Shown: positions 8,281 to 53,848 of the stretch, piece by piece | How the letters are laid out: every line of letters starts with the position of its first letter | How positions within the stretch are numbered: the stretch's first letter is position 1 | NCBI GenBank assembly: GCA_902587545.1 | Contig: CACILL010000003.1 | Span: 19,006-83,005 of the forward strand | Direction of reading: 5' to 3' | DNA length: 64,000 nt | Origin: an uncultured SAR86 cluster bacterium | GTDB taxonomy: Bacteria; Pseudomonadota; Gammaproteobacteria; Magnimaribacterales; AG-339-G14 | Notes under the pieces: model-generated | Database searches by the model: none | Told to the model about the DNA's origin: nothing | Seen by the model: only the letters and a program-made list of their open reading frames with translations | Translations under genes and position numbers: made by a program

Positions 8281-9532
8281 AAACTTAAAATTTATTTTTT
8301 TTCTTTTCTTCTTCCACTTTTCATGGAGTTTTTCAACAGATTTAGATAATTCTACTAGTCATTTAAAAACTATCATCTTAGGCGCAGGTTGTTTTTGGAG
8401 CGTTGAAAAGAAGTTCCAAGAAACATATGGGGTTATAGATGTTCAATCTGGATATGCAGATGGTAAAAATATAAAACCCATTTATAAGGAAATCATCAAA
8501 AGAGAAAATAGATTTAATCCAAATAATTATGCTGAAGTTGTAAAAGTGTCCTACAACAGTAACAAAACAAGCTTAGAAAATCTTTTAAAGACTTTTTTTG
8601 AAATGCATGATCCCACTCAAGAAAATCGCCAAGGGAACGACATCGGTGTTCAGTATCGTTCATTAATTTTAACTTCGTCAGATGAAGAAATTTCTATTTC
8701 TAATGAAATAAAAAATGAGTATCAAAATCTTTTAACTAAAGAAGGATTTGGATTGATCAAAACTGACATAAAAAATTTCACGAATTTCTATTTAGCAGAA
8801 AATTATCATCAAGATTATCTAAAAAAGAATCCAAATGGATATTGTCCAGATTATTCAACTGGAGTTGTTTTCTCAAAAAAACCAGAAAAATTTACAGACA
8901 ATAAGAATTTAGTAATTGGAAAAAAAATACTTATTCTTGAGGCAGAAGGCTGTCCTTATTGTTATAAATTAAGACAAAATGTTTTAAATGATTATAGAGG
9001 CTCCTTAGAAATATCTTATAGAAAATCAGATGAACTAGATAAGCTTGAGTTAAAAACACCCACTTGGGCAACTCCAACAATTTATTTTTTAGAGAATGGT
9101 AAAGAAGTTTGGTCTCATCAAGGCTATTTATCGAATGAAAAATTCTATAAATCTCTGGGAAAGTTTAAGCTAGGTAAAACAGAAGCTTATGATGTTGCCT
9201 TTAATCAAGGTACAGATCCCACATATTGCAAAGAATATGAGTTATTTAAAAATACACCAGATGGAGTTTTCATTGATAAATTAAGCGGAGCCCCACTTTT
9301 TAGTACCAAGTACCGTTTTAACTCAAAAACGGGATGGCTTTCATTTACCCAACCTGTAGAAGATTCTGTAACTGAACATATGGATTACAGTTATGGCATG
9401 GTTCGTGTTGAGATAAGATCTAAATCATCAGGCATTCATTTAGGACACGTATTCAATGATGGCCCAAATGGCAAACCAAGGTATTGTATCAATGCCACTG
9501 TGTTAGAATTCATCCCAAATTTAGACACGTAG
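8273..9532 (+). CDS. msrAB: Exported methionine sulfoxide reductase, MsrA-thioredoxin-MsrB fusion
   Basis: Signal-like N-terminus, GCFWS and AENYHQDYL (MsrA), CPYC (Trx), HLGHVFNDGP...RYCINA (MsrB). Start taken at 8273 (8264 is possible). Confidence 0.9.
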   Translation: MYKNLKFIFFLFFFHFSWSFSTDLDNSTSHLKTIILGAGCFWSVEKKFQETYGVIDVQSGYADGKNIKPIYKEIIKRENRFNPNNYAEVVKVSYNSNKTSLENLLKTFFEMHDPTQENRQGNDIGVQYRSLILTSSDEEISISNEIKNEYQNLLTKEGFGLIKTDIKNFTNFYLAENYHQDYLKKNPNGYCPDYSTGVVFSKKPEKFTDNKNLVIGKKILILEAEGCPYCYKLRQNVLNDYRGSLEISYRKSDELDKLELKTPTWATPTIYFLENGKEVWSHQGYLSNEKFYKSLGKFKLGKTEAYDVAFNQGTDPTYCKEYELFKNTPDGVFIDKLSGAPLFSTKYRFNSKTGWLSFTQPVEDSVTEHMDYSYGMVRVEIRSKSSGIHLGHVFNDGPNGKPRYCINATVLEFIPNLDT

Positions 9533-9599
9533 CTCAGTTGGTTAGAGTACTACCTTGACATGGTAGGGGTCCCCGGTTCGAATCCGGGCGTGTCTACCA
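9523..9599 (+). tRNA. tRNA-Val(GAC)
   Basis: Acceptor stem AGACACG/CGTGTCT, anticodon arm CTACC-TTGACAT-GGTAG, T arm TTCGAAT, encoded CCA. Confidence 0.97.
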
Positions 9600-39413: not shown

Positions 39414-39489
39414 GGGCGACTAACTCAATTGGTAGAGTGCCACCCTTACAAGGTGGAAGTTACAGGTTCAAGTCCTGTGTCGCCCACCA
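39414..39489 (+). tRNA. tRNA-Val(TAC)
   Basis: GGGCGAC/GTCGCCC acceptor, CCACC-CTTACAA-GGTGG anticodon arm, TTCAAGT, CCA; TATAAT at 39396. Confidence 0.97.
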
Positions 39490-41207: not shown

Positions 41208-41286
41208 GGACCGGTAGTTCAGTTCTGGTTAGAACGCCGCCCTGTCACGGCGGAGGTCGCGGGTTCGAGCCCCGTCCGGTCCGCCA
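41208..41286 (+). tRNA. tRNA-Asp(GTC)
   Basis: GGACCGG/CCGGTCC acceptor, CCGCC-CTGTCAC-GGCGG, TTCGAGC, GCCA; TATAAT at 41188. Confidence 0.97.
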
Positions 41287-41629: not shown

Positions 41630-42433
41630 ATGATGAAAATTGAAGATTTGTTTTCAGTAAAAGACAAGGTTGCTGTTGTCACTGGAGGATCTCGAGGGAT
41701 AGGTGAAATGATTGCATCAGCGTATCTAGCAAATGGCGCTACTGTATATATTACGTCTAGAAAGGCTGATGTTTGTGATGCAAAGGCAATAGAACTCTCA
41801 GAAAAATATAATACTCAATGTACATCTCTTCCATCTGACTTATCTTCTTTAGAAGGAATAGAGAAGTTTGTAAAAGAAGTAGAGGCGTTAGAATCTGGGA
41901 TTGATATTTTGGTAAATAATGCTGGAGCAGCATGGGCAGAACCTATAGATGTTTTCTCAGAAAAAGGCTGGGATAAGGTGATGGATCTGAATGTCAAAAG
42001 TGTATTCTTCTCTACGCAAAAGTTTCTTCCACTGTTGAAGAAAAAAGCTACAAGAGACGATCCTTCTCGGGTTATCAACATAGGTTCAATTGATGGTATT
42101 GGAACTCCTGTTTTTGAAACATACCCTTACAGTGCATCTAAAGCCTCTGTTCATCATATGACAAGAGTGCTTGCCGCAAGACTTGTTAGAGAAAACATTT
42201 TAGTGAATGCCATTGCACCAGGACCTTTTCCTAGCGATATGTTGGGTTCAGCAGTAGCTCATAACTATGATGGCATTATTTCCAGAAATCCAGTCCATAG
42301 AATGGGTAGAGCCGAAGATGTCGGCGGTTTAGCTTTATATCTTTCATCAAAGGCTGGTTCTTACACTGTAGGAGAAACCATTACTTGCGATGGCGGAACA
42401 ATCTCTGCAACTGGTCACGATTTGAGTGAATAA
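41630..42433 (+). CDS. Short-chain dehydrogenase/reductase
   Basis: TGGSRGIG, LVNNAG, YSASKA; AGGAG RBS. Confidence 0.93.
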   Translation: MMKIEDLFSVKDKVAVVTGGSRGIGEMIASAYLANGATVYITSRKADVCDAKAIELSEKYNTQCTSLPSDLSSLEGIEKFVKEVEALESGIDILVNNAGAAWAEPIDVFSEKGWDKVMDLNVKSVFFSTQKFLPLLKKKATRDDPSRVINIGSIDGIGTPVFETYPYSASKASVHHMTRVLAARLVRENILVNAIAPGPFPSDMLGSAVAHNYDGIISRNPVHRMGRAEDVGGLALYLSSKAGSYTVGETITCDGGTISATGHDLSE

Positions 42434-42460
42434 AAAAACCCCGTCATTTCTGACGGGGCT
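42432..42460 (-). terminator. Rho-independent terminator (minus strand)
   Basis: Minus strand reads CCCCGTCA-GAAA-TGACGGGG followed by T7. Confidence 0.9.
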
Positions 42461-42661
42461 TAAGAATAAGTATTTCAACTTAATTCTTACCTTAAGCGGG
42501 CGAACCGGCAAAAGGTCGGAATCGGGTTAACCCGTTGTCAAGAGGCACCCCCTGAAATTCCTGCTAATTCGTTAATACTAATTTGGACCACCTCCTTCAC
42601 AGGGTAAGAATAAAACGCACTTTACTAGGAACCCCTGATATTGAACCTAAGTGCAACACTT
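42432..42661 (-). ncRNA. Putative structured small RNA (~230 nt), family unassigned
   Basis: Largest non-tRNA intergenic gap in the window, GC-enriched, with several nested inverted repeats, TAAAAT -10 at 42673-42668 and a terminator at the 3' end. Confidence 0.65.
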
Positions 42662-42673
42662 GTATCTATTTTA

Positions 42674-44113
42674 CTACAAGACGAGAGGGTAATAAAAGAC
42701 CGATAAAAGAAGGATATATAGAAATGAAATTAAATTAATAAAAATTCCTGCTCTTACCATTTGCTGAATGGGAACTAAGTTTGAAGCAAAGACTATAGAG
42801 TTGGGAGGAGTTGCAACTGGCAACATGAAAGCACAGCTAGCAACAATTGTTAGCGGTAATGTAAGCAGCAAAGGGTTTATATCTAAATTGAAACCTACGC
42901 TAGCAATTACGGGCATAAAAGTAATTGTCGTTGTTAGATTGCTTGTTAACTCTGTAAGGAATAAGACCAACAATATAATCAAAGCAACTACTATAATGGG
43001 ATTGATATCTGCAGGTATCAAATTAGCTAACCATGAGGCAAGGCCGGTGGAATTTACTTCATAGGCTAAAGCCATACCTCCACCAAATAAAAAGATAAGC
43101 CCCCATGGAAATTTTTGTTGTAAGTCATCCCAATTAAGCAAATAATCTTCTCTATTTTTAGAACTAACAAAAAATAATGAGATGCCTCCTATCATTGCAA
43201 TAACTGCATCTTCTAAAAAATCTAATCCTGGTAAATCGTCTAATAATTTTCTAAATACCCAACAAAAGGCAGTTATTGAGAAAATTATTGCAACCATTTT
43301 TTGCTCTGAAGTAATCTTTCCTAAATCTTCAAGCATTGTTCTTAGTTTTGAATTTGTTTCCGGAGAAGCCTTAAAATTTATTGGAAAAATTAAAGAGGTT
43401 AAAATAAACCAAACAAGAGGGACCATAATTAGTGTCACAGGCAGTCCTATTGCAAGCCAACTTATGAAACCTATATCTTGATTAAAATTATCATTTGCAT
43501 ATTGAATAAGATAGCCATTTGGAGAAGTTCCAATTGGAGTAGATATTCCTCCCAGAGAAGCTGAATATGCAATTCCAAGGAGTAGAGCAAATTGAAAATT
43601 TTTACTCTCACTTGGAAGCAAATCTTTCACTGTCTCATTTATTACAGCTATGACTGACACTCCAATTGGCAAGAGCATTATTGCTGTTGAGGTATTCATT
43701 ACCCACATACTCAAAATTGCACTTGTTAGCATAAAAGCAGCCACGATATTTTTTGCCTGCATGCCACTATACTTTAGGATATTAAGCGCAATTCTTTTGT
43801 GCAAATTCCACTTTTGCATAGCAATTCCAATCATGAACCCACCAGCAAAAAGGAACTGAACTTTATTCATATATTCTCTACTGATAACTCCAATTGGATC
43901 TATTCCTAACAAAGGAAAGAAAATTAAAGGCAATAGAGCCGTTGCATAAAGTGGCATTGCTTCAGTAGCCCACCAAATTCCCATCAGTAAAAAAATAGCT
44001 GCAGTTAGCTTACCTTCGTTTGATAATCCATCTGGGACAGGCATGAAATAAATACAAACAAAAATCGCAAGTCCAATCCAAAAACCGATTTTTTTGGCAT
44101 TAAATGAATTCAT
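42674..44113 (-). CDS. SLC13/DASS family sodium:dicarboxylate/sulfate symporter
   Basis: WATEAMP, SMWVMNTST, TPIGTSPN, TELTSN, AFMLPVATPPN. Confidence 0.93.
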   Translation of the reverse strand: MNSFNAKKIGFWIGLAIFVCIYFMPVPDGLSNEGKLTAAIFLLMGIWWATEAMPLYATALLPLIFFPLLGIDPIGVISREYMNKVQFLFAGGFMIGIAMQKWNLHKRIALNILKYSGMQAKNIVAAFMLTSAILSMWVMNTSTAIMLLPIGVSVIAVINETVKDLLPSESKNFQFALLLGIAYSASLGGISTPIGTSPNGYLIQYANDNFNQDIGFISWLAIGLPVTLIMVPLVWFILTSLIFPINFKASPETNSKLRTMLEDLGKITSEQKMVAIIFSITAFCWVFRKLLDDLPGLDFLEDAVIAMIGGISLFFVSSKNREDYLLNWDDLQQKFPWGLIFLFGGGMALAYEVNSTGLASWLANLIPADINPIIVVALIILLVLFLTELTSNLTTTITFMPVIASVGFNLDINPLLLTLPLTIVASCAFMLPVATPPNSIVFASNLVPIQQMVRAGIFINLISFLYILLLSVFYYPLVL

Positions 44114-52759: not shown

Positions 52760-52836
52760 CGGGGTGTAGCGCAGTCTGGTAGCGCGCCTGCTTTGGGAGC
52801 AGGATGTCGGGGGTTCAAATCCCTCCACCCCGACCA
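52760..52836 (+). tRNA. tRNA-Pro(TGG)
   Basis: CGGGGTG/CACCCCG acceptor, CCTGC-TTTGGGA-GCAGG, TTCAAAT, ACCA. Confidence 0.97.
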
Positions 52837-53689: not shown

Positions 53690-53766
53690 CTCCCGGTAGC
53701 TCAGCTGGATAGAGCATCTGCCTTCTAAGCAGAGGGTCGCAGGTTCGAATCCTGCCCGGGAGGCCA
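53690..53766 (+). tRNA. tRNA-Arg(TCT)
   Basis: CTCCCGG/CCGGGAG acceptor, TCTGC-CTTCTAA-GCAGA, TTCGAAT, GCCA. Confidence 0.97.
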
Positions 53767-53771
53767 CTAAT

Positions 53772-53848
53772 GGTGGGCGTAGCTCAGTTGGTAGAGCACT
53801 GGTTTGTGGTACCGGTTGTCGTGGGTTCGAGCCCCATCGCCCACCCCA
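53772..53848 (+). tRNA. tRNA-His(GTG)
   Basis: G-1 plus GTGGGCG/CGCCCAC-C, CTGGT-TTGTGGT-ACCGG, TTCGAGC, CCA. Confidence 0.97.

Follow-up and report, generated by a model that had tools for sequence, protein, structure and literature searches.

A conserved small RNA from an uncultured SAR86 bacterium with an extended 16S rRNA complement and an AUU-led frame of 14 codons

The small RNA and its genomic setting

We analyzed a stretch of 64,000 nucleotides (nt) from an uncultured SAR86 cluster bacterium (contig CACILL010000003.1, positions 19,006 to 83,005), hereafter the window, whose minus strand encodes a small RNA of ~228 nt at 42433-42660. Upstream of it, on the same strand, is the stop of a gene for a 479-aa DASS-type symporter, and downstream is a convergent gene for a short-chain dehydrogenase (SDR). 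Inside the RNA, at 42597-42583, lies a sequence complementary to the 3' tail of 16S rRNA, for which an original prediction, made from the letters of the DNA, had proposed the role of a ribosome decoy. Our analysis identified the RNA as an order-specific, independently transcribed and abundant small RNA with two pseudoknots. Our results also lean, though by no wide measure, toward the view that the motif is a genuine full-length Shine-Dalgarno (SD) sequence, which would load ribosomes onto an AUU-led frame of 14 codons within a regulatory structured RNA and would not be a pure decoy.

The extent of the RNA, from its inferred 5' end to the U-tract of its terminator, was drawn from the ends of metatranscriptome contigs, the terminator and the homologues. 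A -10-like hexamer, TAAAAT (42673-42668), precedes the inferred 5' end by 7 nt, and a TAnnAT hexamer was read by eye 8-10 nt ahead of a conserved GUC/GUU leader in 20 divergent homologues. At its 3' end, the RNA has an intrinsic terminator (42461-42432), composed of an 11-bp stem (42461-42436) with a C-rich 5' arm, and a U-tract. Using a crude finder of terminator arms, we detected a C-rich 5' arm in 96 of the 103 distinct terminators of the RNA family, which as homologues are not independent of each other (CCCC or CCCU in 65, anti-SD-like CCUC(C/U) in 31), compared with 9 of 69 hairpin-plus-T sites in the bacterium's own genome. Judging from their base composition, these C-rich arms may pair alternatively with G-rich boxes.

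The RNA was found in marine metatranscriptomes, in which 17 RNA runs each contained 88% or more of the words sampled from the stretch, and the 21 matching rows spanned 12 studies. Metatranscriptome contigs covered the RNA in all four runs examined, which came from four studies. Contigs without loose ends stopped at 42659 (X2) and 42661 (X3), and a contig of X8 stopped at 42657 with a loose end; together they are a weak hint at a 5' end near 42660. The upstream transporter gene had a depth of 0 in run X8; contig-free stretches and comparisons of depth between genes were not used as evidence.

By BLAST, 37 of 61 related genomes had the RNA. A covariance model, built on a core of 94 positions, matched 111 of 151 genomes of the host order (49 of the 55 of high quality, and 21 of 21 genera), nearly always in single copy, and none of 149 other genomes of the class. 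We take this order to be, in all probability, the SAR86 clade. The RNA was also present on at least 118 metagenome contigs, while a strict pattern gave no matches in viral contigs. Its public homologues come from uncultured marine Gammaproteobacteria, e.g. SCGC AAA168-P09 and the TMED and MED-G metagenome-assembled genomes. Two copies were seen in a few genomes, among them L051, in which they are ~2 kb apart, and G058, in which they are on two contigs.

The genes that flank the RNA vary by family: the DASS and SDR genes; a TonB receptor gene with PhoA or PhoX; panB; and EamA. Because the neighbours differ between families, the RNA is an independent gene and not a conserved untranslated region. 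For a riboswitch, an aptamer consistently upstream of one pathway would be expected, and among these family-specific neighbours no such pathway was found. In two families, the ATG of an EamA-family transporter gene lies ~5-25 nt past the U-tract of the RNA's terminator in many homologues. A promoter or an SD sequence would not fit into so short a gap, so transcription of the EamA gene must pass through the terminator. The window's own family has no same-strand gene after the RNA, the next gene being the convergent SDR gene.

The 16S rRNA complement and the frame behind it

The 15-mer named in the original prediction is present on the minus strand at 42597-42583 and reads AAGGAGGTGGTCCAA. We compared it with the 3' end of the 16S rRNA of the same genome (L001, sole 16S gene detected), which is ...GGGGCTGGATCACCTCCTAAAC. 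If the mature 3' end is as assumed for all pairing lengths given here, 13 contiguous nt of the motif (AGGAGGUGGUCCA, 42596-42584) pair with this tail, through 12 Watson-Crick pairs and one G-U pair. The single wobble is thus as predicted, whereas the predicted length of 14-15 nt, which had been derived from a generic 16S sequence, is not attained: the first A of the 15-mer stands opposite an A, because this 16S rRNA has CCUAA and not CCUUA. We then searched the full 1.13-Mb genome, on both strands, for sites that pair in register with the 16S tail, G-U pairs included. The scan returned 39 sites of 10 nt, 6 of 11 nt and 3 of 12 nt; its longest runs were one of 13 nt, which is the motif, and one of 15 nt, which is the antisense of the 16S gene itself. 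One of the three 12-mers is also located in the window, at ~38881 on the minus strand (C3:57886), within CTGGAGGTGATTTACG. The computed duplex energy of the motif with the 16S tail was -24.9 kcal/mol, and that of the motif with its cis mask, described below, was -16.8 kcal/mol; the values for AGGAGG and plain GGAG were -10.7 and -7.8 kcal/mol, respectively.

SD sequences are used sparsely in the host genome, and most genes are without one. With open reading frame (ORF) starts taken as crude first-ATG guesses, a 4-mer SD core was found upstream of 162 of 773 long ORFs, versus 73 of 773 in an in-gene control, with a positional peak at -12 to -9. Longer cores were rare upstream of these ORFs (6-mers in 8 of 773, 7-mers in 3 of 773), in agreement with the earlier statement that the motif is longer than the ribosome binding sites of real genes.

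To describe the conservation of the motif, we used a model-based alignment of 85 covariance-model matches, which represent 53 distinct sequences. Its longest invariant block was GGAGGUG(G/A)UC, found in 53 of the 53 distinct sequences (GGAGGTGGTC in 31 and GGAGGTGATC in 22), all of them phylogenetically related, so that the counts overstate independence. In the window, this block is GGAGGUGGUC, at 42595-42586. The next-longest invariant run was TGAC. The 10-mer is unchanged even in the most divergent homologues, in which other boxes that had seemed invariant vary, and its one variable base toggles between G and A in several lineages. Both of these bases pair with a U of the 16S tail, and the toggling base is unpaired in the cis helix P2 in 19 of 32 sequences. 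The invariance of the block bears out the claim that the motif is a strongly selected complement of the anti-SD, and it is this conservation across homologues, not the length of the match in a single genome, that leads us to take the motif as real.

The original prediction further held that no AUG, GUG or UUG lies at initiation distance from the motif, only AUU codons, and that nothing translatable follows. The first statement is true in the window. However, an AUU codon (42582-42580) is conserved and heads an open frame of 14 codons with its stop, UGA, at 42540-42538 (mini-ORF, 42582-42538), so that the premise of an untranslatable downstream region is not supported. The start codon was ATT in 51 and ATC in 2 of the 53 distinct sequences, and it is located 2-4 nt past the 10-mer and 7-9 nt past GGAGG. 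The frame measured 42 nt to the TGA in every one of the 53, and the TGA was likewise invariant (53/53); insertions and deletions were seen in the spacer but never inside the 42 nt. A GUG inside the motif was also considered as a start and was rejected, since its spacer varies from 2-4 nt and its frame is not conserved.

Next, we counted stop codons in the three frames of 89 unique variants, 43 of which were newly obtained from metagenomes. A stop was present in 0 variants in the ATT frame, in 62 in the +1 frame and in 87 in the +2 frame, and the respective counts for 21 clusters of less than 85% identity were 0, 13 and 21. In 5000 column shuffles of 43 variants, the number with an in-frame stop averaged 17.9 and never fell below 9. 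A fixed frame that is free of stops argues that ribosomes translate through it, and a frame that stays open with its content unconstrained suggests that translation, and not the product, is what matters. The mini-ORF itself contains, 7 nt ahead of the UGA, a second SD-like box, AGGGGG (42553-42548; AGGAGG in other families), which occupies alignment columns 58-63, with an invariant G in column 60. No run of regulatory codons was found in the mini-ORF. As to an ordinary small-protein mRNA, which had been expected to show itself by a conserved AUG-led ORF after the motif, a conserved ORF is indeed there, but it is AUU-led and its peptide is not conserved. Likewise, the 14-aa product, for which no purifying selection was detected, does not resemble that of a type I toxin or small-protein mRNA.

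Fold of the RNA and its family assignment

The 5' part of the RNA forms a hairpin, H1 (42654-42617), the stem sequences of which are fully different between families, with complementarity kept. The loop of H1, CAGGG (42637-42633), pairs with an ACCCUG block (42605-42600), located 3-6 nt upstream of the motif, and thereby forms the pseudoknot PK1. Like P5 and the promoter, H1 and PK1 were read by eye from the sequences. Covariation in PK1 was apparent from lineage to lineage: CAGGG:CCCUG, AAGGG:CCCUU, UGGGG:CCCUA, CAGAGAG:UUCUCUG, CAGAGUG:UACUCUG and AGGGGAUU:AAUUCCCU. Our case for PK1 is this by-eye reading, because a generic best-run test for the pairing performed no better than on shuffled blocks. 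In a MAFFT alignment of the 5' half, H1 was misaligned, and RNAalifold recovered P3 as the sole helix.

The motif itself takes part in helix P2, in which AGGAGGUG (42596-42589) pairs with UGCCUCUU (42547-42540), 50 nt downstream; the latter strand forms the last codons of the mini-ORF. P2 is present in the minimum free energy fold, and 82.6-83.8% of its cells were paired across the alignment, while slid controls for the whole structure reached at most 64%. Variation in P2 is confined to the 3' strand, where changes keep the pairing (G-C/G-U, U-G/U-A). That the 5' strand stays invariant as its 3' partner drifts suggests that the purine strand is under a second constraint. Helix P3 joins GGAAU (42561-42557), which is part of a conserved CAGGAA, to AUUCC (42522-42518). 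In P3, 95% of the cells were paired and both sides had changed in 3 of the 5 pairs, e.g. to GGAUU:AAUCC in one genus. P2 and P3 interleave and therefore form a pseudoknot.

Three hairpins complete the fold. P4 (42534-42523; CGGG UUAA CCCG) has compensatory changes in 3 of its 4 pairs and is degenerate in some families. P5 (42515-42490) is variable in sequence and conserved in pairing, with CUAGAGG/CCUCUAG, CUAAUAA/UUAUUAG and CUACCA/UGGUAG in other lineages. P6 (42488-42462), with the loop UGAAAU, was recognized by eye in only 2 of four families. These assignments bear on the proposal that the motif can be masked in cis by either of two segments farther 3'. Masking is possible, through UGCCUCUU; the two masks that had been named are wrong, as both lie in other helices, CCGACCUUUU (42519-42510) in P3b/P5 and GGUUCGCC (42506-42499) in the apex of P5.

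The RNA was not assigned to a family of Rfam. At the gathering score, a search of the whole window returned six tRNA genes and nothing else, and a search at E values up to 10 over 42380-42760 returned only chance matches driven by the terminator. The six tRNA genes are all on the plus strand, at 9523-9596, 39414-39486, 41208-41283, 52760-52833, 53690-53763 and 53773-53845. RNase P RNA, tmRNA and 6S RNA were rejected as identities, their genes being elsewhere: RNase P RNA is encoded on C4 (297 bits) and tmRNA on C6. Outside the window, the genome has a sub-threshold 6S match at C1:281325-281496 (41.4 bits, compared with a gathering score of 46.4).

A divergent RNA of the signal recognition particle (SRP; 4.5S RNA) was rejected as well: RF00169 gave no match in 31 genomes, no domain IV motif was found in the genome, and Ffh and FtsY were not found. 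Likewise, none of 31 genomes gave the Ffh M domain (SRP_SPB), and the bacterium's own genome gave no SRP54 GTPase domain, with controls for the SRP search positive in 13-14 of 14. From these searches, the order as a whole seems to lack the SRP pathway. IF3 and PheS were found in 28 and 29 of 31 related genomes, respectively. In Dupont et al. 2012 (PMC3358033), SRP (tentatively), IF3 and PheS are on a list of core genes missing from SAR86. Since we found IF3 and PheS, the search works on these genomes, and part of the list is an assembly artefact, while the loss of SRP stands.

Readings of the element and known systems

In the model that we consider somewhat better than evenly probable, the motif acts as a true SD sequence for the mini-ORF. 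It would alternate between its cis mask in P2 and the 16S tail. Docking of a 30S subunit would place the AUU in the P site, whereupon ribosomes would translate the 14 codons, melt P3 and P2 and stop at the UGA. As P2 pairs the motif with the end of the same frame, it would gate the SD sequence. The relevant output would be the occupancy or passage of ribosomes (for RNA remodelling, stability or the sensing of initiation capacity) and not the peptide, and in two families ribosome passage may gate terminator read-through into the EamA gene.

Several observations weigh against this model. The motif is the genome's best complement of the 16S tail, yet the 13-mer is only marginally beyond chance in one genome, and its length depends on the assumed mature 3' end of the 16S rRNA. 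AUU and AUC are poor start codons. No selection on the peptide was seen: 6 of 28 distinct single-base changes were synonymous, a fraction of 0.21 compared with 0.23 expected, all three codon positions changed to a similar extent, and the conservation of codons 2-3 is at the level of the RNA. The fixed length of 42 nt could stem from the fold, because P3a and P2b lie in the frame. The significance of the shuffle test is inflated by the kinship of the sequences, and the variants that were collected by pattern had been selected for the SD sequence, ATY, TGAC and the 42-nt spacing, with internal stops not selected against. Finally, the constancy of its 5' strand leaves P2 with no double-compensatory change, and in one genus, with 2 of 8 positions unpaired, the helix is weak.

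In an alternative reading, the SD-like box is unrelated to ribosomes, being a P2 strand or a contact for a ligand or protein in an RNA of riboswitch-like or ribonucleoprotein type, with its likeness to an SD sequence and the open frame as by-products of a conserved purine-rich core. The complex fold with two pseudoknots and the invariant junctions AUUAGUAU, CAGGAA and UGACA would suit such an RNA, as would the terminator that follows, the transporter gene directly after it in two families, conservation that acts on RNA and not on codons, and a 13-mer that is near chance in one genome. Yet it leaves unexplained why P2 has an invariant 5' strand opposite a freely varying partner, why the one variable base is limited to G or A, why stops are avoided in one phase, and why a start-like codon stands at the SD spacing that this genome uses; moreover, no downstream gene is conserved across the four families and no Rfam family matches. 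We regard this alternative as unlikely. The decoy proposed originally would bind 30S or 70S ribosomes via the extended SD sequence, with the A/U-rich stretch and the near-cognate AUU filling the channel, and would serve as a sponge, for storage or for hibernation. Part of that proposal survives, in that a real, abundant RNA without an AUG carries a maskable, selected anti-SD complement, whose invariant 10-mer and flanks give a duplex energy of -24.9 kcal/mol. A weak start codon suits parking better than production, the RNA recurs in many metatranscriptome assemblies, and most genes of the genome lack an SD sequence. Known hibernation factors also went undetected (Ribosomal_S30AE, i.e. HPF/RaiA, and RMF in 0 of 31 genomes each; Host_attach, a family that we take to include Balon, in 0 of 5 high-quality genomes), which keeps a hibernation role alive at low probability. 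What fits poorly is the 30S-only sponge, which explains neither the absence of in-frame stops from 89 variants nor the invariant UGA at 14 codons; in addition, the SD sequence is at least partly masked by P2. A pure decoy is consequently quite unlikely in our estimate. We would rate just as low a variant in which the RNA parks ribosomes that were captured via the SD sequence, took the near-cognate AUU into the P site, ran the 14 codons to the UGA after the second SD-like box and are held idle and protected, their number being set by P2. In the literature, we found nothing relevant on an anti-SD-binding sponge RNA or on hibernation in SAR86.

The sequence of short ORF and terminator also brings to mind a leader-peptide attenuator of the EamA gene; the stand-alone copies of the RNA in the window's family would then be relics or would control antisense read-through into the convergent SDR gene. 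In the EamA lineages, the ATG so close behind the U-tract, with no room for a promoter, fits this well, and the terminator arm is often of the anti-SD-like type (CCUC(C/U), 31 of 103), which could allow an antiterminator between SD sequence and arm. It is hard to reconcile with the convergent next gene in the window and throughout its family, with the PhoA/PhoX or panB neighbours in another family, and with conservation that is equally strict where there is no target gene. No run of regulatory codons supports it either. Attenuation is plausible where the EamA gene follows, but as the general function it strikes us as very unlikely. The boxes AAGGAGG, CAGGAA and CAGGAGG could instead be read as CsrA sites, making the RNA a CsrA/Rsm-type sponge. 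The CsrA-site consensus is of the CAGGA type, and the RNA has two or three GGA boxes of this type, two of which lie in P2 and P3. CsrA splits the order cleanly: it was found in 36 of 40 genomes of the window's family and in 35 of 40 of a second family, while no genome of the two others had it (0 of 40 and 0 of 30). The window's own genome, which is 85% complete, had no match, yet 10 of 12 genomes of the genus did, which makes this gap an artefact of the incomplete assembly. Hfq was found neither in the bacterium's own genome nor in any of 5 good genomes. The two families without CsrA keep the RNA, in 36 of 40 and 12 of 30 genomes, with the same boxes. We rejected the CsrA sponge because 0 of 70 genomes of these RNA-keeping families have CsrA; it also has no Rfam match to CsrB/Rsm and accounts for neither the invariant 10 nt nor the open frame, and we deem it highly improbable.

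The lineage, which is probably SAR86, one of the most abundant bacterial groups in ocean surface waters, has very few regulators. A single-copy RNA that is present in every genus and in many ocean metatranscriptomes must do something central, and a perfect complement of the anti-SD, combined with a non-AUG mini-frame whose peptide is irrelevant, points to an undescribed form of ribosome sensing or management. If the RNA is the same as the "abundant non-coding RNA" for which earlier ocean metatranscriptomics gave no explanation, our model would give that RNA a testable function. Direct tests are made possible by the first isolate of the group (PMC11582366).

Among known systems, the leader attenuators of trp, phe and his resemble the RNA in having an ORF of ~14 codons whose translation, and not whose peptide, matters, as well as alternative helices and a terminator, with a gene following in two families here. 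They differ from it in several respects, as the present RNA has an AUU/AUC start, an SD sequence of 10-13 nt, pseudoknots and no regulatory codon run; two families, one of them the window's, have no same-strand target after it, and it behaves as a single-copy core gene of the order. Stable, terminator-ended small RNAs with a short frame, such as SgrS/SgrT, RNAIII/hld and mccA, are similar in layout, with translation being presumed in our case. Their peptides are conserved and AUG-led, whereas the frame described here shows no peptide selection. In STAB-SD of the Bacillus cryIIIA mRNA, 30S binding to a sequence with long 16S complementarity protects the mRNA and does not serve protein synthesis. 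The unusually long complementarity of an SD-like sequence is common to both, but STAB-SD is located at the 5' end of long Firmicutes mRNAs and has neither start nor frame, while the motif described here is ~65 nt inside a gammaproteobacterial small RNA and heads a frame.

RMF and HPF/RaiA occupy the anti-SD region and the mRNA/tRNA channel of the ribosome, and an RNA bound through its SD sequence, with an A/U-rich stretch in the channel, would fill the same sites. Those factors are proteins, and the open frame of the present RNA favors translation over silent occupancy. We know of no RNA with a hibernation-factor role; if the parking of ribosomes were true, the RNA would be the first RNA-based device for ribosome hibernation or buffering. 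A conserved AUU as initiation codon is shared with Escherichia coli infC, the gene for IF3, which is autoregulated via its AUU start so that initiation depends on fidelity and on the IF3 level. The RNA is not infC, and a link to IF3 was rejected, infC being present elsewhere in the genome and apparently ATG-led. In Flavobacteriia, the rpsU mRNA, which encodes bS21, senses free anti-SD by means of an extended SD sequence. That system belongs to an unrelated lineage and controls a ribosomal protein gene, whereas the RNA described here has no notable protein product. The likeness lies in the principle: an exceptional SD sequence in a genome that is mostly devoid of them could read the availability of the 16S tail.

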